NCBI GenBank assembly: GCA_965603135.1
Contig: CBFDBV010000002.1
Span: 1 to 39,969 of the forward strand
Source of the DNA: an uncultured bacterium
GTDB lineage: Bacteria; Armatimonadota; Zipacnadia; Zipacnadales; UBA5352
DNA: 39,969 nucleotides
Direction: 5' to 3'
Shown one piece after another: positions 1 through 38,890 of this stretch. The first letter of the stretch is position 1, and every line of letters begins with the position of its first letter. The notes beneath the pieces are model-generated. The model had not been told where the DNA came from, did not search any database, and saw nothing but the letters and a program-made list of their open reading frames with translations. The translations under genes were made by a program, and so were the position numbers.

Positions 1-685
1 CGTGGCCGTCCACGAAGGCGAAGTTCGCGCCATCGTGGTGCGGGAAGACCGGCTGGCCGTGCTCGTCCACCTCATAGAGCAGGACCGTCGTGGCGGGCTC
101 AGCGATCTCCTCCACCTTCTTGCCCGCCACCAGCGGGTTGATCGCGTAGCCGCCTTTCTCCCGCCGGGGGCGGGTCGGGCACTCGAAGGGGTGTTCGTTC
201 TTGACATAGGGCATAATGTCGTCTTCCCAGGTCACGGTTCCCGGCAGGCGGCCTTCGTTATCCCTGGCGAACATCTCAATCGCCAGCGCCAACTCCTTCA
301 TGTTGGCGATGCACGATGTCTGGCGGGCCTTCTCGCGCGAGGTTGCGAACGTCGGGAACAGAATGGCGGCAAGCAGGGCAAGCATTCCCAGGGCCACGAA
401 GACTTCGATGAGACGGGACGTCGGGACGCGGCGAGGCTTCTCGGTTGCGGCCATCTTACGCACCTCCTGCATTACGCCTGTGGTTAGCCCCGGTTCCCAC
501 GCGGAATGCAGGTAGGCGTCCTTGAAGCGGCGCTGATCCTCGCGGACCTGGCGCAGCCACTCCCGGCACCCGGCACAGCCCAGCAGATGCAGGCGCACGC
601 GCAGCCACTCGATGAGGCCACACTCCCCGTCGGCGAAGGCCGACAGGCTCTCCAACCAGTTCTCGCACGGCCTCGGGTCGGTCAC
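1..685 (-). CDS. Anti-sigma factor: zf-HC2 zinc-finger domain fused in frame to a pilin-like TM helix and an H-X9-DG (DUF1559-type) pseudopilin domain. The 3' end is truncated by the window edge.
   Basis: My own translation of the minus strand. GTG 685-683 overlaps the sigma stop TGA 684-682 (GTGA). N-terminus VTDPRPCENWLESLSAFADGECGLIEWLRVRLHLLGCAGCREWL carries C...H-x3-C-x2-C. The frame stays open through an internal ATG 454-452 (preceded by AGGAGGTG) into [43 protein letters not shown] and ends ...HHDGANFAFVDGH at nt 2. It is not in the ORF track because no stop lies in the window. The listed 456..695 ORF is a different frame. Confidence 0.7.
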   Translation of the reverse strand, partial: MTDPRPCENWLESLSAFADGECGLIEWLRVRLHLLGCAGCREWLRQVREDQRRFKDAYLHSAWEPGLTTGVMQEVRKMAATEKPRRVPTSRLIEVFVALGMLALLAAILFPTFATSREKARQTSCIANMKELALAIEMFARDNEGRLPGTVTWEDDIMPYVKNEHPFECPTRPRREKGGYAINPLVAGKKVEEIAEPATTVLLYEVDEHGQPVFPHHDGANFAFVDGH

Positions 686-1230
686 TGCGCTTCACCTGCC
701 TGCGTTATCTGCGACTGCGCCTCTTCGAAGAGCTTTCGGAGCCGTTGCCGGGCCCGACAGCAGCGCACCCGGACGTTGTTGACGGTCGTCTCCAACGTCC
801 GGGCGATATCAGAGTATGATAGCTCGCTGATATACCGCGCTGCCAGGACCTCGCGGTCGGCCAGCGGAAGCTGCCCGAGCAGCTCGGTCAGCGGGCCGCC
901 CTCGGGCTCCGGGTCCGTCGTGCTGGGAGCGGGCGCCTCGTCCAGGGGGACGCTATCGGGTTGCCTGCGCGACAGATGCTTACGGCACTTATTGCGCAGG
1001 ATGCCCAGCAGCCATCCGGCGAACTTGCTCGGCTCGCGCAGTTGCCGGAGCTGCCGGTAGGCGTCAATGAATGTCTCCTGGGCGAGGTCGCGCGCCGCCT
1101 CCGGATCGCCGGTGAGGTGGTGAGCGGCGGCGACAAGGGAGCCTTGATGCCGCTCAACGAGGACGGCATAGGCATCTGCGTCACCTTGGAGCACTCGCTT
1201 CACCACCTGGGCGTCCGTGGCCACCTGCAT
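682..1230 (-). CDS. ECF (sigma-70 family, group IV) RNA polymerase sigma factor
   Basis: 182 aa. Region 2 signature ETFIDAYRQLRQLREPSKFAGWLLGILRNKC and region 4.2 HTH LSYSDIARTLETTVNNVRVRCCRARQRL. ATG 1230-1228 is preceded by GGGAG. Confidence 0.9.
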   Translation of the reverse strand: MQVATDAQVVKRVLQGDADAYAVLVERHQGSLVAAAHHLTGDPEAARDLAQETFIDAYRQLRQLREPSKFAGWLLGILRNKCRKHLSRRQPDSVPLDEAPAPSTTDPEPEGGPLTELLGQLPLADREVLAARYISELSYSDIARTLETTVNNVRVRCCRARQRLRKLFEEAQSQITQAGEAQ

Positions 1231-1360
1231 TCGCTCCCGGGGCGCGTCCTGGAGGACGCTTCGCGTCCTCGCCCGTTAAGTGCCCTTCCGGCCGCGAAAC
1301 ATTACAGATCGCGCGACGATTTCAATGCAGGCGGGTTCGAGCCCTGCCTGAATCAAACGA

Positions 1361-1382
1361 GCCCGGCCTCATCAGGCCGGGC
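1361..1382 (-). terminator. GC hairpin (8-bp stem GCCCGGCC/GGCCGGGC, 6-nt loop) followed on the minus strand by TCGTTTGATT. Possible intrinsic terminator after the STN gene pair.
   Basis: Read directly from the sequence. It lies 206 nt downstream of the stop at 1588 and upstream of the next sigma gene. Confidence 0.35.
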
Positions 1383-1587
1383 CCGCTGGCCGTGTTCGTG
1401 CCCGTCGGCCTGCCGGAGACGGGCATCTCCATCCCCACCCTCAGGGCCAGTCCTCTGGGACCGCCCCCCATCAGCCACGTGTTCGTCCCTGAGACCCTGA
1501 CTACCGAGCGCGGCGAGCCTCTGGGCCGCTGCGCTCAACCAGTGTCACTGATCCCCTGTCACGAGTTCCCTATCCAGCCGCCCGCCC

Positions 1588-2952
1588 CTATTCCTCCTCA
1601 CCCAACTCCCCCGGCGGCTGCTTGCTGAGCCACATATCATCGAAGTAGAGCGTGGTGCCTTCGCCCTGCTTGACGTAGCCAGCCGAGTAGAAGCGCAGGA
1701 TGTTGATCTGATCCCAGCCGAGTGGGGCGCGCACCGACATCAAGTCGCTGTACGCGTAGGACAGCAGCTTCCAGCCCTGCCAATCGAGCGGGATCTTGAC
1801 CTGATAGCGATCATGCCCCTCCGTAGCCGGGTTCTCGGACTCGACCCAGAACAGTATCTCGCCATCGGTCGGCTCCTTGCAGTAGACCCACATGTTGACG
1901 TACTCGTAGGCGGACCAGTCGCGCGGCACCGCCGTGTTATACAGCGAGGTCTGCGCTATTGTGCTCACCCACTCGGCCACCCGCCCGCCGGTCTTGGTGG
2001 GTTCCTTGACGCAGCCTATCGCTCCGGAGCCGTAGGCCAAGCAGCCCCAGTCGGTGTCGGGGTGAAAGATCACCAGCTCATCGCCGGGCGGCTCGGCTGG
2101 CATAGCGCGGATGTCATCTATCCTCAGGACCGTCCCTGGAACGTACTCCACCCACGTCGGCCAGCCCTCGAAGGCCAGGCGCATCATATCTATCTTGTGG
2201 AAGCCCACTGGCTCGTACGCACGCTGAAAGCTGCGCTCGTACAACCGCAGTTCCCGCCAGCCCTCCCAGTCAATCTTGATGAGGCAGCGATAGTAGTCCC
2301 TCTGCTCCGTGTCCGGATTGTCCGAGTCCGCCAAGAGCGCCATCACCGCGTCGGTGGCCTGTTCGGAGTGAATCCAGAGGGCCACGCTGTCGTAGCCGGT
2401 CCAATCGTGCGGGGTGCGCTGGTGGAAGATGTACTTCGCAGCGGTGTCCGGGTCCCACTTGCCCGAGGTTTCGCCTTGCTTGACGACCTCGTTGTCGGCG
2501 ACCAGGTCCACCATGTTCTTGTCCCAGTTGTCATGCCAGCGCTTGGCGACGTCGCCCTCCATGTCGTCTATCACGAGGGGTTCCGTGGGCAGCTCGCGCG
2601 GCTCTGCTTCCTCCGCTGGCGCCGGCTCCGGCGGCGCCGCGCCCTTTCGTACGATCTCGTACGCCCCGTCCGCTTCCTTCAACTCGACCCCCGCCGTCAC
2701 GCACAGCATCTGAAGCGCCTGCCTGGCTGACACGCCGTCAACAGAGAAGCGCTGCACCGGCTTGTCCGCCACGCCCGGCGCGACCGACACCTCGAACCCG
2801 CCCGCCATCGCTATCATCTGGGCGACGGCCCCCACGGTGGAGTCCTGCACGTCCAGGCTGACCTTCGGCGCCTCCTCCTGAGCGAAACACGGAACTGACG
2901 CGCTTGCGATAAGGAACCCCAATAGCACGATGCTCATCCGGGGACCTGACAT
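1588..2952 (-). CDS. Secreted STN-domain protein with two tandem CBM/CIA30-like beta-sandwich repeats (copy 1, parental C-terminus ...KQPPGELGEEE)
   Basis: ATG 2952-2950 with AAGGAGG 8 nt upstream. Signal peptide MSGPRMSIVLLGFLIASASVPCFAQEE. STN-like block VSLDVQDSTVGAVAQMIAMAGGFEVSVAPGVADKPVQRFSVDGVSARQALQMLCVTAGVELKEADGAYEIV. Two internally similar ~150-aa repeats (PHDWTGYDSVALWIH...IDWEGWRELRL...LRIDDI and PRDWSAYEYVNMWVY...LDWQGWKLLSY...LYFDDM). The 50-codon extension in the ORF track upstream of this ATG is discarded. Confidence 0.8.
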   Translation of the reverse strand: MSGPRMSIVLLGFLIASASVPCFAQEEAPKVSLDVQDSTVGAVAQMIAMAGGFEVSVAPGVADKPVQRFSVDGVSARQALQMLCVTAGVELKEADGAYEIVRKGAAPPEPAPAEEAEPRELPTEPLVIDDMEGDVAKRWHDNWDKNMVDLVADNEVVKQGETSGKWDPDTAAKYIFHQRTPHDWTGYDSVALWIHSEQATDAVMALLADSDNPDTEQRDYYRCLIKIDWEGWRELRLYERSFQRAYEPVGFHKIDMMRLAFEGWPTWVEYVPGTVLRIDDIRAMPAEPPGDELVIFHPDTDWGCLAYGSGAIGCVKEPTKTGGRVAEWVSTIAQTSLYNTAVPRDWSAYEYVNMWVYCKEPTDGEILFWVESENPATEGHDRYQVKIPLDWQGWKLLSYAYSDLMSVRAPLGWDQINILRFYSAGYVKQGEGTTLYFDDMWLSKQPPGELGEEE

Positions 2953-3068
2953 CTCACTCGCCTCCTTGCCAAGTGCTGCAACATCCACGACCCCGCGCAG
3001 ATACGTATTCGTCGCGTGCGCCTGGCATTCCTGCCTGCTATGACCGGCGTGCACGCTACTGATCGCGC
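1613..3068. repeat. Tandem direct repeat, unit 1 (1456 bp, period 1462 bp)
   Basis: Matches 3075-4530 at every position I compared. All six-frame ORFs in the two units translate identically at an offset of 1462. Confidence 0.9.
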
Positions 3069-4414
3069 TCCGATGGCGGCTGCTTGCTGAGCCACATATC
3101 ATCGAAGTAGAGCGTGGTGCCTTCGCCCTGCTTGACGTAGCCAGCCGAGTAGAAGCGCAGGATGTTGATCTGATCCCAGCCGAGTGGGGCGCGCACCGAC
3201 ATCAAGTCGCTGTACGCGTAGGACAGCAGCTTCCAGCCCTGCCAATCGAGCGGGATCTTGACCTGATAGCGATCATGCCCCTCCGTAGCCGGGTTCTCGG
3301 ACTCGACCCAGAACAGTATCTCGCCATCGGTCGGCTCCTTGCAGTAGACCCACATGTTGACGTACTCGTAGGCGGACCAGTCGCGCGGCACCGCCGTGTT
3401 ATACAGCGAGGTCTGCGCTATTGTGCTCACCCACTCGGCCACCCGCCCGCCGGTCTTGGTGGGTTCCTTGACGCAGCCTATCGCTCCGGAGCCGTAGGCC
3501 AAGCAGCCCCAGTCGGTGTCGGGGTGAAAGATCACCAGCTCATCGCCGGGCGGCTCGGCTGGCATAGCGCGGATGTCATCTATCCTCAGGACCGTCCCTG
3601 GAACGTACTCCACCCACGTCGGCCAGCCCTCGAAGGCCAGGCGCATCATATCTATCTTGTGGAAGCCCACTGGCTCGTACGCACGCTGAAAGCTGCGCTC
3701 GTACAACCGCAGTTCCCGCCAGCCCTCCCAGTCAATCTTGATGAGGCAGCGATAGTAGTCCCTCTGCTCCGTGTCCGGATTGTCCGAGTCCGCCAAGAGC
3801 GCCATCACCGCGTCGGTGGCCTGTTCGGAGTGAATCCAGAGGGCCACGCTGTCGTAGCCGGTCCAATCGTGCGGGGTGCGCTGGTGGAAGATGTACTTCG
3901 CAGCGGTGTCCGGGTCCCACTTGCCCGAGGTTTCGCCTTGCTTGACGACCTCGTTGTCGGCGACCAGGTCCACCATGTTCTTGTCCCAGTTGTCATGCCA
4001 GCGCTTGGCGACGTCGCCCTCCATGTCGTCTATCACGAGGGGTTCCGTGGGCAGCTCGCGCGGCTCTGCTTCCTCCGCTGGCGCCGGCTCCGGCGGCGCC
4101 GCGCCCTTTCGTACGATCTCGTACGCCCCGTCCGCTTCCTTCAACTCGACCCCCGCCGTCACGCACAGCATCTGAAGCGCCTGCCTGGCTGACACGCCGT
4201 CAACAGAGAAGCGCTGCACCGGCTTGTCCGCCACGCCCGGCGCGACCGACACCTCGAACCCGCCCGCCATCGCTATCATCTGGGCGACGGCCCCCACGGT
4301 GGAGTCCTGCACGTCCAGGCTGACCTTCGGCGCCTCCTCCTGAGCGAAACACGGAACTGACGCGCTTGCGATAAGGAACCCCAATAGCACGATGCTCATC
4401 CGGGGACCTGACAT
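3056..4414 (-). CDS. Secreted STN-domain protein with two CBM-like repeats (copy 2, junction-derived C-terminus ...KQPPSERDQ)
   Basis: Identical to copy 1 from the ATG (4414-4412 = 2952+1462) to ...WLSKQPP. The last codons and TAG stop come from the duplicated 13-nt tail of the upstream ATPase gene (ctactgatcgcgc, 3056-3068). Confidence 0.8.
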   Translation of the reverse strand: MSGPRMSIVLLGFLIASASVPCFAQEEAPKVSLDVQDSTVGAVAQMIAMAGGFEVSVAPGVADKPVQRFSVDGVSARQALQMLCVTAGVELKEADGAYEIVRKGAAPPEPAPAEEAEPRELPTEPLVIDDMEGDVAKRWHDNWDKNMVDLVADNEVVKQGETSGKWDPDTAAKYIFHQRTPHDWTGYDSVALWIHSEQATDAVMALLADSDNPDTEQRDYYRCLIKIDWEGWRELRLYERSFQRAYEPVGFHKIDMMRLAFEGWPTWVEYVPGTVLRIDDIRAMPAEPPGDELVIFHPDTDWGCLAYGSGAIGCVKEPTKTGGRVAEWVSTIAQTSLYNTAVPRDWSAYEYVNMWVYCKEPTDGEILFWVESENPATEGHDRYQVKIPLDWQGWKLLSYAYSDLMSVRAPLGWDQINILRFYSAGYVKQGEGTTLYFDDMWLSKQPPSERDQ

Positions 4415-4530
4415 CTCACTCGCCTCCTTGCCAAGTGCTGCAACATCCACGACCCCGCGCAGATACGTATTCGTCGCGTGCGCCTGGCATTCCTGCCTGC
4501 TATGACCGGCGTGCACGCTACTGATCGCGC
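3075..4530. repeat. Tandem direct repeat, unit 2
   Basis: See unit 1. The junction filler tccgat sits at 3069-3074. Confidence 0.9.
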
Positions 4531-5855
4531 GCGGAGATGTGCCGGAAGATACGCATTGCCTCCGCGACATCGGTTATGCCCTCGATGGCCTTCAGTGCAG
4601 CATCGTGAAAGATGGGGGTGTACTTGGCTTCCGCCGCTGCTTCAATCTCGTCCATCTCGGCCCCACTGCTAAGGAGAGCCCGGATCTCTTCATCGAGCAC
4701 AAGGACCTCGTGGACGGCTGTCCGGCCGCGGTAGCCCGTCTCCCGGCACTCCTTGCAGCCAGCCCCCGTCCAGATCAGCGCCGGTACCTCCTTCACGTCG
4801 GCCTCGCGGAGCCACGCCGCCTCCTCGTCCGTCGGCGGTCGCTGCTCGCGGCAGTTCTCGCACACCTTTCGCACCAGCCGCTGCCCGAGCGCGCCGAGCA
4901 GGGCATCGGCGATGAGGAAGCGCTCGACCCCCATGTCCGCCAGCCGCCGCAGGACGCCGGCGGCGCTCTGGGTATGCAGCGTGGTAAGCACCAGATGCCC
5001 GGTCAGGGCGGCCTGGATGACAAGGTAGGCGGTTTCCAGGTCGCGTATCTCCCCGCACAGGATGATGTCAGGGTCCTGGCGCAGAATGTGCCGCATCGCC
5101 ACCGCGAAGGTCAACCCCGCCCGCGGGTTGAGTTGCACCTGGTTCACTCCGTCTATGAGCACCTCGACCGGATCCTCAACCGTTGTGACCTGGTGCTCGC
5201 GACTGTTTAACTCTCGTAGTGCCGCGTACAGCGTCGTGGTCTTGCCGCAGCCCGTGGGGCCGGACACAATCACTACGCCGCACGGACTGCGCAGTAGCTT
5301 GTCGAAGGCCTTCCGGTTGCTCTCTGACATTCCGATCTGATCCAGGTCCGGCATCTCCTCAGGGAGCACCAGGATGCGCATCACGACACTCTCCCCGCGC
5401 GCTGTCGGCAGCGAAGAGATGCGCAGGTCATACTCGCGACCCTCGTGCTCGATGCGGATGCGCCCGTCCTGGGGCATTCGCGTCTCCGTCATGTCCATGT
5501 CGGCCATCAATTGGATGCGCGCCACCACCGGCTCGTGCAACTGCGCGGGCAGCGACATCACATCATGCAGCACCCCGTCAATGCGATACCGCACCACCAT
5601 GTCCCCTTCCTTGCGTTGTATGTGGGTGTCGCTTGCGCGTTCCTGGATGGCCTTCGTGATGATGCTGCCAACCGTCTCGACGGTCGCCTCCGCGTCCGCC
5701 GCGTCCGCGATGCTCAGCACCTTCCTGACGCCCTTCAGCTCTCGTCGGCACTCGACGCACTGCGTCAGGTGCTGTTCCACGGCCTGGTGCTGCTGCTCGT
5801 CCAGCTCCTCCTTGAGATATGCGGTCATCAGCTCACGACAGTCCTCGCACTTCAT
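4518..5855 (-). CDS. zf-HC2 anti-sigma zinc finger fused to a GspE/PilB-family type II secretion / type IV pilus ATPase
   Basis: 445 aa. N-terminus MKCEDCRELMTAYLKEELDEQQHQAVEQHLTQCVECRREL (C-x2-C...H-x3-C-x2-C) with no TM segment. Then an N2-like domain (RYRIDGVLHDV...RMPQDGRIRI...RISSLPTARGESVVMRIL), Walker A GPTGCGKTT, Walker B DPDIILCGEIRD, His box TGHLVLTTLHT and tetracysteine CENC...CKEC. ATG 5855-5853 abuts the sigma stop, and GGGAGGAG lies 5 nt upstream. Confidence 0.85.
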   Translation of the reverse strand: MKCEDCRELMTAYLKEELDEQQHQAVEQHLTQCVECRRELKGVRKVLSIADAADAEATVETVGSIITKAIQERASDTHIQRKEGDMVVRYRIDGVLHDVMSLPAQLHEPVVARIQLMADMDMTETRMPQDGRIRIEHEGREYDLRISSLPTARGESVVMRILVLPEEMPDLDQIGMSESNRKAFDKLLRSPCGVVIVSGPTGCGKTTTLYAALRELNSREHQVTTVEDPVEVLIDGVNQVQLNPRAGLTFAVAMRHILRQDPDIILCGEIRDLETAYLVIQAALTGHLVLTTLHTQSAAGVLRRLADMGVERFLIADALLGALGQRLVRKVCENCREQRPPTDEEAAWLREADVKEVPALIWTGAGCKECRETGYRGRTAVHEVLVLDEEIRALLSSGAEMDEIEAAAEAKYTPIFHDAALKAIEGITDVAEAMRIFRHISARDQ

Positions 5856-6428
5856 TCAGATCTCCTCCCTGTCCAGTAGCTCTCGCAGCCGGGCGACGGC
5901 GTGGTGCATGCGCGACTTGACCGTCCCCACCGGGATGCCCAGGACCTCCGCTATCTCCGCGTAGCGCAGCCCCTCATAGTGGCTCAGCACGAAGACCACG
6001 TGCTGCTTCCGCGGGAGCCTGGCGATGGCCCTGCGGATGCGCTGCATCCGGTAGCGGCGCAGGGCAACGTCCTCGGCGGGCTCGGCCCGCGCCAGCATCT
6101 GCGCCAGCAGCCTCCTGCCGCCCTCGCCAAGCTGCTCCTCGAGCGGCGTGACGCGCGGCCGAGACCTCATGGCGCGCAGGCGGTTCAGCCAGTGGTTCCA
6201 GGCGATGGTGTAAAGGTAGGTGGTGAACTTCGCCCGGGGCTGGTAGCTGTCGCGCGCCAGCCACAGTCTCACCAGCGTCTCCTGCGCCGCGTCGGCGGCC
6301 TCCTCCCGGTCCCGGCAGAGCCGATAGAAGAAGCTCTCCAGGCGCGGTCTGTGCCGCTCGACCAAGGCGGCAACGGCTTCCGTGTCGCCGGCCTTGACAT
6401 GGTCCATCAGCTCACGGTCGCTGGGCAT
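5856..6428 (-). CDS. ECF (group IV) RNA polymerase sigma factor
   Basis: Region 2 AQETLVRLWLARDSYQPRAKFTTYLYTIAWNHWLN and region 4 LRYAEIAEVLGIPVGTVKSRMHHAVARLR. I prefer ATG 6428-6426 (GAGGTG 4 nt upstream) over the track start at 6446. Confidence 0.88.
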   Translation of the reverse strand: MPSDRELMDHVKAGDTEAVAALVERHRPRLESFFYRLCRDREEAADAAQETLVRLWLARDSYQPRAKFTTYLYTIAWNHWLNRLRAMRSRPRVTPLEEQLGEGGRRLLAQMLARAEPAEDVALRRYRMQRIRRAIARLPRKQHVVFVLSHYEGLRYAEIAEVLGIPVGTVKSRMHHAVARLRELLDREEI

Positions 6429-6616
6429 ACCGCACCTCGGCTGCATGCTGCCGACAGGTCAAACACGCGCCATCGCAGAGGGTTCAATGGAGGAGTAAGC
6501 AAGAGGCGCCTGCCGCGGCGGCATCGTAACGACATCGCAGAGCACAGGGAACGGGCGTCAAAGCACTACGTCCAGCAAGCAGAGATACTCCCCTGTCCGC
6601 GTTCTCCGCCGATAGC

Positions 6617-6655
6617 TGCCGTTCCCCATTCCCTATTCCCCATTCCCCATTCCCC
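6617..6655. repeat. Heptamer array: head TGCCGTTCCCC, then ATTCCCT and ATTCCCC x3
   Basis: Units are GTTCCCC 6621-27, ATTCCCT 6628-34 and ATTCCCC at 6635-41, 6642-48 and 6649-55. The array overlaps the last codons (GMGNGE) and TAG stop of queH. Confidence 0.85.
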
Positions 6656-7666: not shown

Positions 7667-7690
7667 GGCAAGGGGCAAGGGGCAAAGGGG
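7667..7690. repeat. Heptamer array GGCAAGG GGCAAGG GGCAAAG GGG. It is the inverted partner of 7741-7771.
   Basis: Read directly. It lies 22 nt upstream of the phosphatase ATG on the coding strand. Confidence 0.8.
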
Positions 7691-7732
7691 CCACCACTCC
7701 ACCACCGCGTACCTCTCTGCCCCGGCCCCCCG

Positions 7733-7771
7733 TGCCGTTCCCCCTTTGCCCTTTGCCTATTGCCCTTTGCC
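7733..7771. repeat. Heptamer array: head TGCCGTTCCCC followed by CTTTGCC-type units
   Basis: It has the same 11-nt head as 6617-6627. It overlaps the last codons (GKGQ) and TAG stop of the 7757..8842 gene, and it is complementary to 7667-7690. Confidence 0.8.
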
Positions 7772-8842
7772 CGGATGCACCTCGCCCTGCTCGTCTATGC
7801 CCGCTACCCGGGTTGCGTCCTGGTACGCGACCGCCCGCAGCCAGGTGCGCCGCACCTCGCCCGGCTGCATCACAAGCTGCGTGCCCGCCTCCATCGCGTT
7901 CGTCAGTATCGCCGGGAAGCTGCTGAACGGCTCCAGCGCCAGCGTGTAGTGCCGCCCGAAGCTCGGATAACCCTCTGCCCCACCCAGCGGCATCCAGCAC
8001 CAGATGTGCCGGAAGGTCTCCAGGTCGAAGGAGATGCCGAAGCCCAGCCGCAAGCTGTGGCTCGTCACCGCCCACCAGCCCTCCTCCAGGTCCGTCAGAT
8101 AGGTCATATCGTCAACCTTCGCCTCCGGCGGGGCGACCACGCTCAGGTCCACCTGGCTGCCATCTCGGGCGCGTCCGCATGGCCAGTGGAACTCCTGGTC
8201 CGCCTCGAACCGCGACCCATCGCCCACATTGGCGTCCACCACCACCCGCTGCGCCGCGCAGTCAATCACGCAGTCGGCCTCCAGGAAGTGGCTGCTCAGC
8301 GCCGGGTGGTGGCCCCACATCAGATCCATCGGCTCCAGGCCCTCGTTGGTGAGCGTCTCGTCTATCTCGAGGACGGCCCGCTCGGCGCGGAGAGTGAAGG
8401 TCTTCTCCAGCAGAAACGGCGTGCGGTTGGTGCGCACCCAGGTCTTCGCCTGCACACATTCTGGATCATCCTGGACTATCTGGCACCTCCAGGGCACGCC
8501 CCAGACCTCGCCGTGCAGGCCCATCTCGACGCCCTTGTAGTCGCAGACGCGGCCGCCGTTGGGCATGCACTCCTGCCAGCCGCCCTCGTAGAAGTCCGCG
8601 AACGGCCCGACCGTCGGCGCTCTCATATCCAGCGCCTTCATCGGCGGCCGCACACCGCGCGGCGTGCGCCACATAAAGTCCATGTCCGCCGGCTTGTACA
8701 GGAACTCGTAGATGTCGGTGCCCTTGTCGAGCAGTATCGTGACGCGCAGCAGCGAGTTCTCCATCACCAGCAGCCGCATATCGCGGTAGGTGAACTCGTC
8801 GCTGATGCGACAGCCGAAGTTGCGTTCGTGCGTGTAGTGCAT
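7757..8842 (-). CDS. Aldose-1-epimerase-like / DUF4432-type protein
   Basis: 361-aa ORF with normal amino-acid composition. The family call comes from overall resemblance only (NSLLRVTILLDKGTDIYEF..., GLHGEVW, MWGHHPAL). Confidence 0.5.
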   Translation of the reverse strand: MHYTHERNFGCRISDEFTYRDMRLLVMENSLLRVTILLDKGTDIYEFLYKPADMDFMWRTPRGVRPPMKALDMRAPTVGPFADFYEGGWQECMPNGGRVCDYKGVEMGLHGEVWGVPWRCQIVQDDPECVQAKTWVRTNRTPFLLEKTFTLRAERAVLEIDETLTNEGLEPMDLMWGHHPALSSHFLEADCVIDCAAQRVVVDANVGDGSRFEADQEFHWPCGRARDGSQVDLSVVAPPEAKVDDMTYLTDLEEGWWAVTSHSLRLGFGISFDLETFRHIWCWMPLGGAEGYPSFGRHYTLALEPFSSFPAILTNAMEAGTQLVMQPGEVRRTWLRAVAYQDATRVAGIDEQGEVHPGKGQ

Positions 8843-8952: not shown

Positions 8953-9117
8953 ACTGCAGACGCGTTCACCCCAACTCGCACTCACAGTTACCTTCGCCGC
9001 TGGACCGCGGTATCCCTGCCTCACCAGCCGGTCGCGCTACGCAGGTAAGACGCCGTTGCGCGTGGAATGTCCCTGTGAGACTCGGCGCCATCGAACCTCT
9101 CACCGGAGTTGATCAAC

Positions 9118-11736
9118 GTGCGCGTTGAACTTGCCTGCTTGCTTGTCATCAGTCTGGTCGCCTCCACCGCGCGGGCGGCCATCCTGCAATCCGACACGAT
9201 CCGCCTGGAGATCGGTGAGGACGCGAAGCTCATCTCGCTGAAGGCCTCCTGCTCCGAACGAGAACTGGGCCGCCCTGGAGAGCCGATGGCCTACGTGGTC
9301 GTCGAAGGTGAGACCGTGCACGCCGACGCCGCGACCGCCGACGACGCCAGCATCGAGTTGACCTTCGGGGAAACCGGCGTGTCAGCGACCCTCGAATGGC
9401 AGGCCGAGGGCGCTCTGCTGCTCGTCAAGCCGGCGTCAGTCACCGGCGCTCCCACCGAGCTGTGCTTCCTGCGCCTGGGCGTCGTGACGGGCGGGGAGCA
9501 CCTGTGCTCAGGTCGCGTGCACGCGTTCGAGGACGCGAGCATTGCCCTGGTATCAGAGGCCCCCGAATGCCTGGTGAAGTCGGGAGGCCGCAATCATCCC
9601 TACATGGCCGCCTCGCTGTTCTCGGAGGTCTCGCTCGAGCCGGTGCGCATCGCGCTGATGGCAGCGCCGCACGAGACCGTCAGCGACCTCATCGCCCAGG
9701 CCGAGGCGCTTTTCGGCATCCCCATCGGCATCAAGTCCAAGCGCTCCGAGGCGGCGATGGGCACGTACGCGATGGTGTCCGGGATGACCGAGGAGAATGC
9801 CGACCAGGTCATCGAGTGGATGGCCCGCGCCGGCGTCGGCACCGTAATGATGGTTCACGGCACCTGGGGGCACTTCGGGCATCACTACGCGGTGCCGGAG
9901 AGCACCTTTCCCAGCGGCATTGAGGGCCTGCGCGCGGCGGTGGACAAGATCCACGACCGCGGCATGCTCGCCGCCGCCCATCTCTTCGCCACCAAGGTCC
10001 CCAAGGCCAGCGACTATATGAAGCCGAAGGCCGAGCGTCGCCTCTACGAGGACCTGAGCCTGACGCTGAAGGAGCCGCTGGGCCTCGAAGAAGACCGCAT
10101 CGTCACCACCGAGGCGCCCACAGAATGGCCTGTGACCACCGGCACGCGCGACATCCGCATCGGCGACGAGATGATGGCGTACACTGAACTCTCGCTGGAG
10201 CAGCCCTTCGGCTTCACCGGTGTCAAGCGCGCTCAGTGCGGGACCGAGCCCCACGCCCACCAGGCCGGCGAGCAGGTCGCCCACGTGAAGACCGACGAGT
10301 CGCGCGGCATCTTCATCATCGACCAGACCACCGACCTGATAGACGAGCACACCGCCGACATCGCGCGCACCTATGACGCCGCGGGCTTCGACTGGATCTA
10401 CTTCGACGGGGCCGAGGACGTGCACCCGCCGCGGTGGTACCGCTACACGGTGCCAAAGCTGAAGCTCATCGAGAAGCTCGAGCGCGAGCCGGTCATCATT
10501 CAGGCCGCGGCCCAGGGCCCGTTCTGCTGGCACCTGACCACCCGCGTGGGCCAGCGCGACTACTTCTGGGTCTCGATGAGCTACAAGGACGAGGTGGATG
10601 ACGCCATCGCCCGCTCGGTGCCCCGCGCTAGGCGGAACTTGATGGTCCCTGAACTCGGCTGGTTCCCGTTTCGCCCCACCGCCGAGCACATCCGCGCCAC
10701 CCAGGTTGACGATGTCGAGTACCTGTGCGCAAAGGCCCTCGCCAGCAACTCGACCTACTCCATTCAGGCCCGCCCGGAGCGCCTGCGCAAGCTGCCCAAC
10801 CTGGACGCGATCCTGCACCTCATGGGCCGCTACGAGCATCACAAGTTCGCCGGCACCCTCGCCGACGAGGTCAAGCAGCGCGTGCTGGAGCCGCATCAGG
10901 ACTTCATCCTGCTCGAGCACGAGGGGATGGAGCCGCGCCTGGTCCGCGCGCGCGAGATGCCCTACGTCGCCGGCACCAGCCATGTCGTCAGGGCCTTCGT
11001 CTGCGACCCCATTGACGGCGTGCGCACGACCTCGCTCTTCCCGGTCGGGCCGAAGGCTTCCATCGAGTTCTCGCTCGACCCCCGCAAGCTGGAGTTCACC
11101 GACTACCAGGGCGATCCCATCCAGGTCGAGGTGAAGCCGGGAGCGCGGGTCGTGGTGCCGGTCACCACGCGCGTCTTTATGCGCAGCAAGGACATCGGCA
11201 TGGGCGAGATTCGCATGGCGCTGCGACGCGCGAAGGTCGAGCTGCTCAAGCCTCAGATGATCTTGGTCAACGCGCCGGACGCCGCGCGCATCGAGGGCAG
11301 CTTCGCCACCGGCGCTGAGGCGGGCGTGACCTTCGATGGCTCGGTGGGCGATGTCATCGTCCCCTCCGGCCCGCTGAACAAGACCACCGGCAGGAACACC
11401 TACCTCGAGTACGAGATTCACGCCCCGGCGCCCGGCACCTATCTTCTGTGGATTCGCACCCGCTACCACGACACCAACTCCAACAGCTTCTTCCTGCACG
11501 ACTTCGAGAACCCGGACGAGCCGCGCTTGCTGGGCAATAAGATCGGCGATTATCACCGCTGGCTCTGGGAGGGCGGCTTGCAGGTCGAGCTGGAGGAGGG
11601 CACGAATGTAATCCGCATCACGGGCCGCGAGAGCAGGCCCAACGAAAGCCCGGTGCTCGATGTCATTTGCCTCATCTACGAGGACTTCGCGTACCGCCCG
11701 ACCGACGCCGATGCCCACGAGGCCCTCGGCGAGTAG
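9118..11736 (+). CDS. Secreted large protein, putative glycoside-hydrolase-like catalytic region with a C-terminal CBM-like domain
   Basis: Signal peptide (M)RVELACLLVISLVASTARAA. GTG 9118 has GGAG 9 nt upstream, so I prefer it to TTG 9109. The C-terminus YLEYEIHAPAPGTYLLWIRTRYHDTNSNSFFL...GTNVIRITG resembles CBM6/35-type modules. Function is tentative. Confidence 0.6.
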   Translation: MRVELACLLVISLVASTARAAILQSDTIRLEIGEDAKLISLKASCSERELGRPGEPMAYVVVEGETVHADAATADDASIELTFGETGVSATLEWQAEGALLLVKPASVTGAPTELCFLRLGVVTGGEHLCSGRVHAFEDASIALVSEAPECLVKSGGRNHPYMAASLFSEVSLEPVRIALMAAPHETVSDLIAQAEALFGIPIGIKSKRSEAAMGTYAMVSGMTEENADQVIEWMARAGVGTVMMVHGTWGHFGHHYAVPESTFPSGIEGLRAAVDKIHDRGMLAAAHLFATKVPKASDYMKPKAERRLYEDLSLTLKEPLGLEEDRIVTTEAPTEWPVTTGTRDIRIGDEMMAYTELSLEQPFGFTGVKRAQCGTEPHAHQAGEQVAHVKTDESRGIFIIDQTTDLIDEHTADIARTYDAAGFDWIYFDGAEDVHPPRWYRYTVPKLKLIEKLEREPVIIQAAAQGPFCWHLTTRVGQRDYFWVSMSYKDEVDDAIARSVPRARRNLMVPELGWFPFRPTAEHIRATQVDDVEYLCAKALASNSTYSIQARPERLRKLPNLDAILHLMGRYEHHKFAGTLADEVKQRVLEPHQDFILLEHEGMEPRLVRAREMPYVAGTSHVVRAFVCDPIDGVRTTSLFPVGPKASIEFSLDPRKLEFTDYQGDPIQVEVKPGARVVVPVTTRVFMRSKDIGMGEIRMALRRAKVELLKPQMILVNAPDAARIEGSFATGAEAGVTFDGSVGDVIVPSGPLNKTTGRNTYLEYEIHAPAPGTYLLWIRTRYHDTNSNSFFLHDFENPDEPRLLGNKIGDYHRWLWEGGLQVELEEGTNVIRITGRESRPNESPVLDVICLIYEDFAYRPTDADAHEALGE

Positions 11737-14376: not shown

Positions 14377-14559
14377 TCCCCCTGACTTGCCCTGACGCGC
14401 AGGGAACAATACCCCTGCCCGCAGTCGTCTGAGTAACAGCATCCTGGGATGTTGGATCGTGCCGAGCAGATGACCAGCAGGAGGCGAGGGGCCCTCGGAG
14501 CCGTCGTGCCCGCCCTTGCGGCACGAAGGCGCCTGCTGCCATCAGGAGAGAACGCGCAG

Positions 14560-15258
14560 ATGAGCGCAATCCGACTGACCTTCGTCGCAGCAATCGTCTC
14601 CCTGCTCGCCGCGCTTGCCGGCTGCGGCGGAGGCGGAAACACGCCCCCCTCCCAGCAGAGCTACTTCCCCCTGGCTGAGAACAACACGTGGTCCTATCAG
14701 ATCGTCGTCCACGTCCCGAGTGAGAAGGGCCGCGTAGCCGACCGCCCGTCTTTGTATCGGACCTTCCCGTTCGCGCTGGCCCACCTCAAAGCTCCGAAGT
14801 CCGGCCTCCGACAGGCCGTTGACCTCATCTCCACGGTCATCGGCAGCGAGATACTGGAGGGCCGGCAGTACTGGGCGGTCCAGGCCGAGCTGGTGGCCGA
14901 CGAAACCAGCACCGTCCAGCACATGCGCATTGATGCCACCGGTCTCTACGCCTACCGGGAGGTGGAGGGCCAGGTCTCCGACATCTGCCTGCTCAAGCTC
15001 CCGCCGCGCGTCGGCGACACCTGGACCGTCCCTGGCGACGAGCAGATCGTCTTCACTACCGAGGCTACCGATGACGCGGTGAGCGTGCCCGCGGGCGACT
15101 TCGAGTGCGTGCGGGTCAGTCAGGTGGACAACTCCTCCGAGCCGCCGTTCACGCTCCTCACCTGGTTCGCTTACGGCGTGGGCCTGGTCCAGGACAACAC
15201 CCTGGAGGGCGACACCCTCACCAGCGAGCTTAAGCTCATCACCTACGAGCTTCACTAG
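14560..15258 (+). CDS. Lipoprotein, function unknown
   Basis: MSAIRLTFVAAIVSLLAALAGC with lipobox LAGC followed by GGGGN. ATG 14560 is preceded by CAGGAGAG. Confidence 0.65.
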   Translation: MSAIRLTFVAAIVSLLAALAGCGGGGNTPPSQQSYFPLAENNTWSYQIVVHVPSEKGRVADRPSLYRTFPFALAHLKAPKSGLRQAVDLISTVIGSEILEGRQYWAVQAELVADETSTVQHMRIDATGLYAYREVEGQVSDICLLKLPPRVGDTWTVPGDEQIVFTTEATDDAVSVPAGDFECVRVSQVDNSSEPPFTLLTWFAYGVGLVQDNTLEGDTLTSELKLITYELH

Positions 15259-15339: not shown

Positions 15340-15389
15340 GCCTTTCAGAGAGCAGGAGCATTGCACGCATTACTTGTGAGGTGATTGAG

Positions 15390-16040
15390 ATGCGACGTGG
15401 CTTCACGCTCATCGAGCTGTTGGTGGTGATAGCGATCATCGCCATCCTGGCGGCGATCCTATTCCCGGTCTTCGCTCGCGCGCGAGAGAAGGCCCGGCAG
15501 ACTTCCTGTCTGAGCAATGTCAAGGAGATCATGCTCGGCGTCCTGATGTACGCCCAGGACTACGACGAGACACTGCCGCGGATGCGTACCACGAACGGCC
15601 CGTTCAATTGGGTCGTCTGGCCCTCGGCCGTCGTCCCCTACATCCAGAACGACCAGATATGGGTCTGCCCCTCCCACAGGTTCAACCATTGCACCACCCC
15701 GGGCGCCTGGGCCTACGTGCAGTGGCACGATTACTTCCCCATCAGCTACTCCTACAACAACTGGAACGGCCAGGGCACCTGGGACGGCTACGACGGCTTC
15801 AACGACACCACCAACCTCCCGCTGGCCAAGATCAAGCGGCCCGCGCAGGTCATCTTCACCGGCGATGGTCGCTGCTACCAGTTCTACTGGACCAGTTCGA
15901 ACTACGTGGACACCTTCAACGCCACCACGTCCAAGAGCTACAAGCCGCACAACGAGGGCGCCAACTTCGCCTTCTGCGACGGCCACGCCAAGTGGCTGAA
16001 CAAGCTGCAGAACTCCGACTTCGCGGCGGATTGGGAGTAG
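15390..16040 (+). CDS. Prepilin-type N-terminal cleavage/methylation domain protein with H-X9-DG motif (DUF1559-type pseudopilin)
   Basis: MRRG|[36 protein letters not shown]. The C-terminus has [16 protein letters not shown] 15390 has GAGGTGA 6 nt upstream. Confidence 0.9.
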
Positions 16041-16308: not shown

Positions 16309-18147
16309 TCAGGGCGGGGCCCGAGGGTGGCCTCCGCCACGAACAGCCACCGCCCGGGTCGTTCGTCGTTTCCAGCTTGCCGCCTCCAGCCTCCAGCCTC
16401 CGCCGTGCGGGGCCTGGTAGACCGCATACCTGGCATTCTCGTAGAGCTTGGGCCAGGCCAACCTGTGCTGGGACCTCACTACCACGTAGCTGGCCCCGTA
16501 TTCGCGGCACAGCCAGGCCATCTTCTCCTCCTCGAAGCCCTGGAAGGCGGAATCACCGCAGAACCATCCGTGCGGCGTCACCTGCATATCCTGCATTCGC
16601 CGCCACCACTCGAAGAAGCTGCGCGGGTTGTACATATGCGGCGCGCCGTCCTTGTAATCGCCCACGATGGCCCTCTCCGAGAAGCAGCGGAAGCCCTGCA
16701 AGGCCGGGGGCGTCAGGAATACCGCGTCGCGCGGCGTGTGATCGCGGCACCAGAGCTGGATGTCTTCCCATGCGGGCGGCGCACCACCCCACCACGCAAG
16801 GCTGTCAGACAGCCTGTCCTTCACTCTCAGCCCGGCGGCGAGCATCAGAGCCCCCAGCAGCACGGCCATTGCCGCCTTCGCGCGACCGGCGGAGCACGTG
16901 CGTTGATCTCCCGCCCGTGGTGTGGGCACGAAATGGGCCGCGCCCAGCAGGAACACCACCCACAGTTGCGCGTTGACCCGCAAAGCCAGGAAGGCCGCCA
17001 GGGCCAGGATCCCGACCGCCACATCCCGGGGCCGGCCGCTGAAGCGCATCCCCTCGTGATGGGCGAAATACAGCAGGGCGACCAGGACCGCCAGCTTGCT
17101 CGAGCGAAACAGCGCGGCCAGTATGACCCGGCGCACGGGGACAACCTCGCTGAACACCGTCGCCGGGACCCAGAGCGCCAGGACCACGACTACGAAGACG
17201 ACGGCTATGCGATCGCGCTCAGTCCAGGGCCGCTTGAAGACCAGCGATCGTGCCCCCACCGCGAGCACCGCAGCAACTCCCGCCCAGCACCCGATCGGCC
17301 AGGTGCCCGGGAAGAGGTGCGGGCCTGAGCGCATCCGGGTCAGCTCCACCCATCTGCGCAGCTCGAACGCCGAAAGGGCCGAGAACTGCCAGGTGCTGAA
17401 GAAGTCCACCAACATAGGCAGCGCGCACACCAGGAAGACCGCCGGGCCTGCCCATGCCACGCGGCGGCGCTGGCCTCCGACTAGGATCCCGGCCAGCCAG
17501 ACCATCGCGCCCACCACCGCCGCGGAGATGGGATGCAGGTTCACCATCAGCCCCGCCAACGCCATCGCCCACAGCGGCTGCTTGCGGAGGGCCAGAAGCA
17601 GCGCGACCAGCAGCCCCGGGAACGCCAGACTGCGCAGCGTCACCTCCGGCCACGCCAACCTGAGGCCATCAGCGCCGGGGACATAGCGCGTTGGCACCGA
17701 CAGCGCGACCACCACCAGGCAGAACGCTGCGCTGGCCCGATCCCGGAAGAGGTTGATCGCCAGGGCGTAGACTGCGATGACAGTCAGGGCCGTGGCGAGC
17801 AGGTGCAGAACCAGGAAAAGCGGCTCGAGCGGCACGCCGCGCGCCAGCACCGCCAGCAGCCGCCAGAAGAGCGGGTGCTGACCCGGGATGGTCTCCAGGA
17901 GGAGGTCGCCACCGTAGAGCCCGGGGTCCAGGAAGTGCTTCAGGTAGGGCAGGTAGACCGACTGATCATTCGTGCCGAAATGATAGCCCGACACGACGAC
18001 GCTGAGCGCGGCCACCGCGAGGATCAGCGCCCAGTCTCGCCCCCTGGGCGGCAGGCCGGCGAAGAGGGTCTCCCACCAGCCTGTCGCGACAGGGGCTCCA
18101 GTAGGGCTCACAGAGCTATTCGCCTGGTTCGGGTCGTGTTGATTCAT
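16309..18147 (-). CDS. Polytopic membrane protein with a C-terminal soluble domain (putative glycosyltransferase-like). Its C-terminal tail runs into a repeat element.
   Basis: It has many hydrophobic helices. ATG 18147 overlaps the upstream stop (ATGA). The last ~35 aa (APHGGGWRLEAASWKRRTTRAVAVRGGGHPRAPP) are encoded by the 16358-16406 array and adjacent repeat DNA. Confidence 0.7.
   Translation of the reverse strand: MNQHDPNQANSSVSPTGAPVATGWWETLFAGLPPRGRDWALILAVAALSVVVSGYHFGTNDQSVYLPYLKHFLDPGLYGGDLLLETIPGQHPLFWRLLAVLARGVPLEPLFLVLHLLATALTVIAVYALAINLFRDRASAAFCLVVVALSVPTRYVPGADGLRLAWPEVTLRSLAFPGLLVALLLALRKQPLWAMALAGLMVNLHPISAAVVGAMVWLAGILVGGQRRRVAWAGPAVFLVCALPMLVDFFSTWQFSALSAFELRRWVELTRMRSGPHLFPGTWPIGCWAGVAAVLAVGARSLVFKRPWTERDRIAVVFVVVVLALWVPATVFSEVVPVRRVILAALFRSSKLAVLVALLYFAHHEGMRFSGRPRDVAVGILALAAFLALRVNAQLWVVFLLGAAHFVPTPRAGDQRTCSAGRAKAAMAVLLGALMLAAGLRVKDRLSDSLAWWGGAPPAWEDIQLWCRDHTPRDAVFLTPPALQGFRCFSERAIVGDYKDGAPHMYNPRSFFEWWRRMQDMQVTPHGWFCGDSAFQGFEEEKMAWLCREYGASYVVVRSQHRLAWPKLYENARYAVYQAPHGGGWRLEAASWKRRTTRAVAVRGGGHPRAPP
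16358..16406. repeat. Heptamer array GTCGTTCGT CGTTTCC AGCTTGC CGCCTCC AGCCTCC AGCCTCC GCCGT
   Basis: Its reverse complement shares GGAGGCT units and the terminal GGAAACGAC with 16124-16155. The two arms are about 210 nt apart. Confidence 0.8.
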
Positions 18148-25934: not shown

Positions 25935-26025
25935 AACGGCGGAGGTTCGAAGCCGGAAGCTGAGGACCACAGAGGTGGGAGGGTCGTTCGTCGTTCGTCG
26001 TTTCTCGCCTCTCGCCTCCGCCGTT
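25935..26025. repeat. Repeat-derived hairpin element in the nusA-infB spacer
   Basis: An 11-bp inverted repeat, AACGGCGGAGG 25935-45 and CCTCCGCCGTT 26015-25. The right arm is preceded by GTCGTTCGTCGTTCGTCGTTTCTCGCCTCTCGCC, the complement of the GGAGGCGAGAGGCGAGAAACGAC family. The element ends directly 5' of the infB RBS AAGGGG. Confidence 0.75.
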
Positions 26026-31998: not shown

Positions 31999-32068
31999 GA
32001 GGCGGGAGGCGAGAGTCGGGAGGCGACCTCACATTCTTCCCCGCTTCCCGCATCTCGCCTCTCGCCTC
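31999..32068 (+). promoter_or_regulatory. Repeat-derived 16-bp leader hairpin (one G-U pair, 38-nt loop) starting at the predicted +1 of ffh and ending just 5' of its RBS
   Basis: GAGGCGGGAGGCGAGA 31999-32014 pairs with TCTCGCCTCTCGCCTC 32053-32068. I checked it base by base. Confidence 0.6.
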
Positions 32069-38134: not shown

Positions 38135-38890
38135 ATGCGCAGAGGGCGCAGCGCAAAGGGCAGAGCGCACAGGCAAAGGGCCGGTGCGGTGGCCCCCATC
38201 CGGCTTCGCCAAGGCGACGGCGGACAGGTTGCCCATTCCCCATTCCCCATTCCCCGCCGTTCGCGCGGCTTCACTCTGATTGAGCTGCTCGTGGTGATAG
38301 CCATCATCGCGATTCTCGCGGCGATGCTCTTTCCCGTGTTCGCCAGAGCACGCGAGAAAGCGCGCGCGGCGCAGTGTATGTCGAACCTCCGCCAGCTCGG
38401 CATTGCCCTCGAGATGTACTCCAGCGACTACGATGAGCTGTTCCCCTTCGCGGTGGACCCCGCGGACGCGGAATTGCCCGAGATCTGGGACGCCTATCCT
38501 GACTGGCAGGCACTGATACCCACTATGCCTCGGCTCAAGGACGCTCTGCTGCCGTACACCAAGGCGCGGGAGATCTGGCACTGCAAGTCCGACACGGGCT
38601 ACACCAAGCTCGAGGGCACCAGCCTGGATCTGAACGGCAAGCCGACCTCCTTCGCGGCCTTCGGCACCTCCTATATGTGGCGCACCGAGGTCGCCTTCCG
38701 GCAGTCCGGGCCCTCGCTGCTGCCGCATCCCTCCGAGACCAACGTCCTCTTCGACGCCCACGGCAGTTGGCACGGCGCCAGCCAGCGCTACGACGAGGGC
38801 CGCTGGAACATGCTCTTCGCCGACGGCCACGTCAAGAGCGTCAACTGCCAGCAGTACGACGAGGCTTGGGCAACGTCGGTCGGCGACTGA
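38135..38890 (+). CDS. Prepilin-type N-terminal cleavage/methylation domain protein with a DUF1559-type C-domain. Start codon uncertain.
   Basis: RSRG|[36 protein letters not shown], and ...[11 protein letters not shown] near the C-terminus. The nearest in-frame canonical starts are GTG 38189 and ATG 38135, which give 26- or 44-aa leaders. Confidence 0.8.
38232..38255. repeat. Heptamer array CCC ATTCCCC x3
   Basis: ATTCCCC at 38235-41, 38242-48 and 38249-55, the same unit as at 6635-6655. It sits in frame directly 5' of the pilin cleavage-site codons. Confidence 0.85.

Follow-up and report, generated by a model that had tools for sequence, protein, structure and literature searches.

A putative anti-sigma domain fused to a GspE/PilB-type ATPase, next to an ECF sigma gene, in an Armatimonadota-type chromosome

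Six minus-strand genes located within the first 6.4 kb of a 39,969-nt window of an Armatimonadota-type chromosome (the window being the whole stretch of DNA analysed, to which all coordinates refer unless a locus is named) raise the question of whether they form one signalling module or are independent units that happen to adjoin. An earlier note on this DNA had listed, in this order, a sigma factor of the extracytoplasmic function (ECF) type (here sigma-A), a zf-HC2 protein fused to an ATPase (the ATPase fusion), two proteins joining a secretin/TonB short N-terminal (STN) domain to carbohydrate-binding-module (CBM) domains (STN-CBM), a second sigma factor (sigma-B) and a zf-HC2 protein with a pseudopilin-like part (the membrane anti-sigma), and all six are present according to their open reading frames (ORFs) and Pfam matches. 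The region corresponds to two independent sigma/anti-sigma pairs and a duplicated STN-CBM gene, which are neighbours in one narrow lineage only. Its most notable element is the anti-sigma/ATPase fusion, which is worth follow-up, and the integrated glycan-sensing module that the note had proposed is unsupported.

One module or three units

The reading of both zf-HC2 proteins as anti-sigma factors, already made in the earlier note, is strongly supported by gene order, because an ECF sigma gene is always adjacent. For the first pair, sigma-A with the ATPase fusion, the neighbourhoods of eight lineages were compared (the window together with L012, and L007, L001, L003, L005, L093, L095 and L096), and a sigma gene adjoins the fusion in all of them. 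In seven lineages this gene directly precedes the fusion: in five it touches or overlaps the start of the ATPase, and in L003 and L096 a gap of 70-88 nt separates the two. The exception is L001, with the sigma gene about 360 nt downstream. Apart from this gene, the neighbours differ from lineage to lineage. For the second pair, sigma-B with the membrane anti-sigma, scanning metagenomes with the anti-sigma's DUF4349 part gave seven true loci, mostly on short contigs. A sigma-B-type gene is found upstream of the anti-sigma wherever the sequence reaches (L011, L100, L101 and L102), and the remaining neighbours are unrelated.

All three elements are adjacent only in the window, in strain L012 and in the close relatives L007 and L011. 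Distant STN-CBM homologues (L008 and L010) have glycan-utilisation genes around them and neither a sigma nor an anti-sigma gene nearby, and a hidden Markov model of the STN domain detected no copy in any other sigma/anti-sigma locus examined. Since the neighbours of each pair are unrelated and STN-CBM genes occur elsewhere, these are three independent units adjoining in this clade only, and their neighbourhood in one lineage was no evidence of wiring.

In the single module of the earlier note, the STN-CBM proteins would sense glycans and pass the signal through their STN domain to the membrane anti-sigma, at its pseudopilin domain; the ATPase-linked anti-sigma would be part of the same module. 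Several features agree with it: the STN/N0 fold is real and similar to the signalling domains of FecA and FpvA and to the STN-like domain of the PupR anti-sigma, the CBM-like domains are real as well, and the gene order is common to the window, L012, L007 and L011. However, the genes are not co-conserved outside that narrow clade, an outcome that the note itself had named as refuting its model. Furthermore, the anti-sigma has no periplasmic domain of the FecR type, the STN-CBM genes have no ECF promoter and a sigma-70-like one in L007, and a terminator-like hairpin lies between the STN-CBM genes and sigma-B. Such an integrated module is considered quite improbable, and the description as three units is followed below.

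The sigma-A operon and its ATPase fusion

The ATPase fusion matches the Pfam models zf-HC2 at residues 3-37 (E 7e-8) and T2SSE at residues 52-435 (E 1.7e-123), and its start codon directly abuts the stop codon of sigma-A. The closest chains in the PDB are EpsE/GspE proteins (E 1e-109, the best being V. cholerae EpsE), with PilT far weaker. In NCBIfam the fusion is below both equivalog cut-offs, having 483 bits with the GspE model (cut-off 630) and 436 bits with the PilB model (cut-off 675). Its ATPase part includes N2E and CTE without N1E/MshEN (PF05157); PF13490 occupies that place, and canonical relatives keep PF05157. The Walker A (K205), Walker B (E269), Asp box, His-box and tetracysteine motifs are all conserved in the 34 fusion homologues aligned, and the ATPase is apparently active. 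About 40 clusters of zf-HC2 + T2SSE proteins of about 445 amino acids were found. The fusion is rare: at 50% identity it has about 12 full-length representatives, and T2SSE-type proteins number about 24,700 (E <= 1e-30). The few named homologues of the fusion and of the membrane anti-sigma, from which the chromosome is assigned, belong to Armatimonadota. In the representative search the fusion family was outscored by proteins of about 1000 amino acids with two T2SSE matches each, which are tandem double GspE/PilB-type ATPases.

The putative anti-sigma domain corresponds to residues ~1-50 and contains C3 and H29-x3-C33-x2-C36; in the same alignment the Hx3Cx2C motif (H29, C33, C36) is invariant and C3 is kept in at least 90% of the homologues. 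The best PDB matches of this N-terminus are the anti-sigma domains of RsiW and RslA in their sigma-bound form, with weak scores (E 0.04 to 0.2), and it also weakly matches the NCBIfam anti-sigma models RsrA and ChrR. Such a domain could instead be a zinc finger for docking or oligomerisation, with the neighbouring sigma factor only driving expression of the ATPase, and both the short span of the Pfam zf-HC2 model (35 residues only) and the weakness of the PDB matches would agree with this. However, the top PDB matches are specifically anti-sigma domains bound to sigma factors, the sigma gene is adjacent in all eight lineages and in five touches or overlaps the start of the ATPase, and the divergence of the sigma factors runs parallel to that of the ATPases. 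A docking finger is most unlikely, and the domain is treated here as an anti-sigma.

Sigma-A has 190 amino acids from the start codon common to its orthologues, with Pfam matches to Sigma70_r2 (E 2.5e-18) and Sigma70_r4_2 (E 6.4e-20). Both sigma factors are of the ECF type (group 4), having regions sigma-2 and sigma-4 only and scores above the cut-off of NCBIfam TIGR02937 (114 bits for sigma-A and 74.6 bits for sigma-B; cut-off 42.9). The sigma-A orthologues beside ATPase fusions form a coherent group, sharing 41-82% identity among themselves and 22-33% with sigma-B, and their divergence parallels that of the ATPase partner. Upstream of these orthologues the motif TGAAC-N16-YGTTTRA is present in seven of the eight lineages. 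In L001 and L003, where the sigma and ATPase genes are apart, an extra copy is found directly before the ATPase gene. The motif has 13 matches in about 187 kb, both strands included, ten of them at most ~90 nt upstream of sigma-A or ATPase genes, and the copy before sigma-A is the sole strict match within the 40-kb window. Together they make the sigma-A operon a candidate for autoregulation through an ECF-type promoter.

The overall explanation, held with moderate confidence, consists of an autoregulated sigma-A/ATPase operon, a separate sigma-B operon and a separate STN-CBM gene, with sigma-A release by motor state as its inferred mechanism. The first operon would comprise two genes, one for an ECF sigma factor and one for a soluble anti-sigma protein, and would regulate its own transcription. 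The anti-sigma domain of the fusion would hold sigma-A on the hexameric ATPase, and release would be set by the state of the motor, that is, by the nucleotide cycle, the hexamer conformation or docking on a platform encoded elsewhere, similar to that of type IV pili (T4P) or type II secretion systems (T2SS). Transcription would thereby be coupled to the activity of the machine. The proposal of the earlier note, that the ATPase-linked anti-sigma would report on the motor, is a plausible hypothesis. A more tentative proposal, and a rather doubtful one, is that the fusion may act as a transcriptional checkpoint in a pilus or secretion motor, with sigma-A freed only upon platform docking or ATP cycling; if true, this would be a regulatory principle so far undescribed for type IV filament systems.

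Several points weigh against this explanation. All its mechanistic steps are drawn from sequence and structure models, and the promoter motif was drawn by eye from eight sequences. The context sample is small, with eight lineages for the first pair and about five usable loci for the second. The tie of the fusion to a "motor" is hypothetical, no T2SS or T4P structural gene being linked to it in any locus: platform, secretin and peptidase genes were not found within 6-8 kb of the fusion, or on the whole of the shorter contigs, in the eight lineages. The STN-CBM genes of the window come after the ATPase gene at spacings of about 100 nt and with no predicted terminator, so read-through from the sigma-A promoter, and hence some regulatory link in this lineage, is possible. 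The Hx3Cx2C motif is also equally compatible with redox sensing.

Redox sensing is the basis of the main rival, in which the fusion would be an RsrA-like thiol/zinc switch: oxidation of the Hx3Cx2C motif would free sigma-A, and the ATPase would be a passenger or a redox-co-regulated effector rather than a sensor. The conservation of H29, C33, C36 and C3 and the weak NCBIfam matches to the RsrA and ChrR models favour it. However, zinc is merely structural in many proteins with this motif; in RslA, RsiW and ChrR it has a structural role, with no redox sensing. The strong conservation of the ATPase catalytic motifs in turn argues for a functional role of that part. A redox switch is considered unlikely, and release of sigma-A by the state of the motor is still preferred.

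Two observations concern the surroundings of the first pair. Only L001, among the eight lineages, has pseudopilin genes near the ATPase fusion, two scattered ones at a distance of 4-5 kb. Flagellar genes (FliJ, SLT, hook-length and FlgD) occur at a distance of about 1.5 kb from the sigma-A/ATPase pair in L095 (8800-13335), the only lineage with such a context.

The sigma-B operon, the STN-CBM genes and the rest of the window

Sigma-B has 81% identity to its L011 orthologue, and sigma genes 46-51% identical to it are located immediately upstream of homologous anti-sigma genes in L100, L101 and L102. The GTG start codon of the membrane anti-sigma overlaps the sigma-B stop codon (GTGA). The encoded protein contains a zf-HC2 domain (E 6e-7) followed by a pilin-like transmembrane helix (RLIEV...ILFP) and a DUF1559 domain, with the H-X9-DG motif readable in the sequence as HHDGANFAFVDG; it also scores 24.3 bits with SBP_bac_10 (cut-off 23.3). 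Full-length orthologues have about 475 amino acids and additionally include DUF4349 and a C-terminal transmembrane helix, and about 40 clusters have this zf-HC2/DUF1559/DUF4349 arrangement with the C-terminal helix. In the pilin-like helix of the family Glu+5 is kept in at least 90% of the sequences, and the window protein and most relatives lack Gly-1. The N_methyl model has no match to the zf-HC2/DUF1559 fusions, whereas ordinary DUF1559 pseudopilins do match it. Cleavage by a prepilin peptidase had been considered as the release step of this anti-sigma and was dropped, because Gly-1 is missing in most family members. In the proposed explanation the membrane anti-sigma would have its zf-HC2 domain in the cytoplasm, the pilin-type helix as an anchor and DUF1559 and DUF4349 outside the cytoplasm, and would sense a cue from the envelope or from the pseudopilin pool. 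A degenerate DUF1559-like gene follows the membrane anti-sigma in L011, L097 and L098.

The pattern GAA[AC]C-N15-17-CGT[CT] has two matches in the window, one before sigma-B (1315-1338) and the other at 26370 (+) inside infB. At the place of the window hairpin 1360-1378, L011 has a G+C-rich hairpin with a similar tail. A further ECF-like sequence, GAAC-N18-CGTC, is present at 14404-14429 (+), about 20 nt before a DUF3108-like gene (14449-15258); sigma-B or another ECF sigma factor could recognise it, or the match could be due to chance. L011 carries two additional genes (1826-3904 of that locus) in the interval from the STN-CBM pair to sigma-B; they encode a 279-amino-acid secreted protein and a 386-amino-acid protein with an N-terminal "GC", a possible lipoprotein signal. 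In the window this interval consists of about 360 nt of non-coding sequence (1231-1587), which suggests a deletion in the lineage of the window.

The STN label given to the STN-CBM proteins stands at the level of the fold, from relatives, a profile match to PilQ N0 and an AlphaFold model, but not from the window's own sequence in Pfam, where STN (PF07660) has no match even at E <= 10. The STN-CBM family includes 11 clusters, and seven members have an N-terminal domain of about 75 residues; four of these seven domains match PF07660 (best E 6e-5), and the top PDB match of the family profile is PilQ N0 (E 0.011). The AlphaFold model of the domain has a mean confidence (pLDDT) of 90.8. Its best structural matches are PilQ N0 domains (TM-score 0.76-0.80), and it also resembles other secretin N0 domains, the signalling domains of FpvA and FecA and the STN-like domain of the PupR anti-sigma, with TM-scores of 0.65-0.80 overall. 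The full model of the downstream copy (pLDDT 85.7) has a signal peptide, a beta-alpha-beta-beta-alpha-beta-beta domain at residues 31-103 and two beta-sandwiches.

Both copies match CBM_11 (E ~1e-9, 38.9-39.9 bits, cut-off 27) and have a second beta-sandwich domain, and in Foldseek the sandwiches match tandem CBM22, CBM11 (TMt 0.68) and CBM30 structures. The STN domain is followed by the two sandwiches, with no match to TonB_dep_Rec or Plug in these proteins. The STN-CBM product is a Sec-exported, probably glycan-binding protein; it would bind a glycan, and its N0 domain would dock onto a periplasmic partner. A search for promoters of the sigma-A or sigma-B type before the STN-CBM genes found none, and in L007 the gene is preceded by a sigma-70-like promoter, TTGACT-N17-TATGAT. 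Directly upstream of the distant homologue in L008 (2503-7797) there are four tandem paralogous lipoprotein genes, whose products of about 400-424 amino acids have dockerin-like DxDxDG repeats and no Pfam match.

The duplication of the STN-CBM gene, seen already in the earlier note, is an exact repeat of 1456 nt (1613-3068 equal to 3075-4530), with a period of 1462 and a 6-nt junction (3069-3074). Each unit comprises the ATPase gene's final 13 nt, the spacer of about 100 nt and the CBM gene without its last codons. Because the unit stops short of these codons, the C-termini differ, being ...PPSERDQ* in the upstream copy and the native ...PPGELGEEE* in the downstream one. Identical junction and flanks occur in L012, an independent assembly with 32 mismatches to the window (99.5% identity); the duplication is therefore real, and it is recent.

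If the repeat had been mis-resolved in assembly, or were a population variant, such an artefact would explain the 100% identity of the copies over 1456 nt, as well as the ten L012-specific single-nucleotide polymorphisms (SNPs) present in both copies of that assembly, a pattern expected if a short-read assembler traversed one node twice. Against it stand the identical 6-nt junction and flanks in two independent assemblies that differ at 32 sites, the one site near the repeat boundary at which the L012 copies differ from each other, and the coherent in-frame C-terminus created at the junction. In addition, the sister lineages L007 and L011 likewise have two tandem STN-CBM genes each, old paralogues 54% identical to each other. 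An artefact is very unlikely. The shared SNPs of L012 reflect either concerted evolution or an assembler passing one graph node twice, and the perfect identity of the copies is not to be over-read.

The coordinates of the features are collected in Table 1. The rest of the window is mostly housekeeping (rimP-nusA-infB-rbfA, truB, ribF, ffh, rpsP, rimM, trmD, rplS, lepB and rnhB), with queH, a phosphatase gene, glycoside-hydrolase-like genes and a LonC-like protease also present, and an ORF of 875 amino acids (9109-11736) has no family match. As the earlier note had said, no platform protein, secretin or prepilin peptidase is encoded among the plausible window genes scanned. Two ordinary DUF1559/H-X9-DG pseudopilin genes with an N_methyl site (15381-16040 (+) and ~38240-38890 (+)) stand singly amid the housekeeping genes, in line with a genome whose pseudopilin family is large and dispersed. 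In the first of the two, the first-codon-position GC content is unusually low (0.50). Short tandem heptamer repeats (for example TTCCCCA x4.9 and CCCATTC x3.4) are found throughout the window, in several cases at a gene end or close to it, and the one at 6622-6655 codes for the C-terminal tail of QueH (...GMGNGE*). They are similar to the heptamer short tandemly repeated repetitive (STRR) sequences of cyanobacteria.

Table 1. Features of the locus and repeats of the 39,969-nt window
Feature	Coordinates	Strand	Evidence or remark
ECF sigma factor sigma-A	5856..6428 (longest ORF from 6446)	-	Pfam Sigma70_r2, Sigma70_r4_2
Candidate sigma-A promoter	6459..6486	-	TGAACC-N16-TGTTTGA
zf-HC2 + T2SSE fusion, 445 aa	4518..5855	-	Pfam zf-HC2, T2SSE
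STN-CBM, upstream copy, 452 aa	3056..4414	-	CBM_11, AlphaFold, Foldseek
STN-CBM, downstream copy, 454 aa	1588..2952	-	CBM_11, AlphaFold, Foldseek
Tandem duplication	1613..4530		1456 nt at 100% identity
Terminator-like hairpin between STN-CBM genes and sigma-B	1360..1378	-	Similar hairpin in L011
Candidate sigma-B promoter	1315..1338	-	GAAC-N16-CGTC, kept in L011
ECF sigma factor sigma-B, 182 aa	682..1230	-	Pfam Sigma70_r2, Sigma70_r4_2
Membrane anti-sigma, first 228 aa, ends at window edge	1..685	-	zf-HC2, pilin-like helix, DUF1559
Heptamer repeats	6622-6655, 7667-7691, 7742-7772, 16371-16401, 23714-23733, 25983-26002, 31999-32025, 38232-38255		Among them TTCCCCA x4.9, CCCATTC x3.4

Comparison with known systems

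Both pairs belong to the ECF sigma/zinc-binding anti-sigma (ZAS) kind. As in the class I proteins RsrA, ChrR, RslA and RsiW, the Hx3Cx2C domain is N-terminal, the gene lies by an ECF sigma gene, with which it is apparently co-transcribed, and there is a candidate autoregulated ECF-type promoter. The known examples stand alone or are joined to a cupin or to a simple transmembrane and periplasmic domain, whereas here the partner is a GspE/PilB-type ATPase in the first pair and a pilin-like helix with DUF1559 and DUF4349 in the second. No description of either fusion was found in the searchable literature, including the main text of the ECF re-classification paper.

The ATPase fusion shares with GspE and PilB the N2E and CTE domains, the Walker A/B motifs, the Asp and His boxes and the tetracysteine zinc site, and is 47-50% identical to canonical Armatimonadota PilB/GspE. 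It differs from them in having an anti-sigma domain in place of N1E/MshEN, a domain that binds GspL or cyclic di-GMP, and in having no adjacent pilus or secretion operon in the loci examined. By these sequence features it is not a canonical GspE or PilB.

Similarly to the FecI/FecR/FecA system and to glycan sensing by SusC-like, anti-sigma and ECF sigma proteins in Bacteroides, an ECF sigma factor, a membrane anti-sigma and a protein with an STN/N0 fold are found close together here, and the CBM-like domains hint at a glycan theme. However, the STN protein is without a TonB-dependent plug and barrel, the periplasmic part of the anti-sigma consists of DUF1559 and DUF4349 with no FecR-type domain, and the linkage is limited to one narrow clade. 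Because the TonB-dependent barrel and the FecR domain are lacking, this is not signalling of the FecI/FecR/FecA type.

Among bacterial signalling systems, ECF sigma/anti-sigma pairs are a major one, and for most of their groups it is still being asked how the anti-sigma senses its signal. In concept, the proposed mechanism resembles the coupling by FlgM and sigma-28 in flagella and that of the ExsE type in type III secretion, where the availability of a transcription factor is tied to the activity of an envelope machine. There the machine itself serves as the export route of the inhibitor, whereas here the inhibitor would be a covalent part of a motor-type ATPase, and the link to the machine is inferred. 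If true, the fusion would represent a new type of input, the state of an NTPase (nucleoside triphosphatase) motor, in a simple two-gene system with a defined promoter motif.

The membrane anti-sigma, in turn, shares with the DUF1559/H-X9-DG proteins of Planctomycetota, Verrucomicrobiota and Armatimonadota the pilin-like N-terminal helix, Glu+5, the SREKAR..SC.SN.KQ core and the H-X9-DG motif. It differs from them in the cytoplasmic domain of about 90 residues in front of the helix, the loss of Gly-1 in most members, the lack of an N_methyl match, and the extension by DUF4349 and a second transmembrane helix. With its pilin helix, this anti-sigma points to a second way in which pseudopilin-rich cells (those of Armatimonadota and of the Planctomycetota-Verrucomicrobiota-Chlamydiota, or PVC, group) may monitor their pseudopilin pool.

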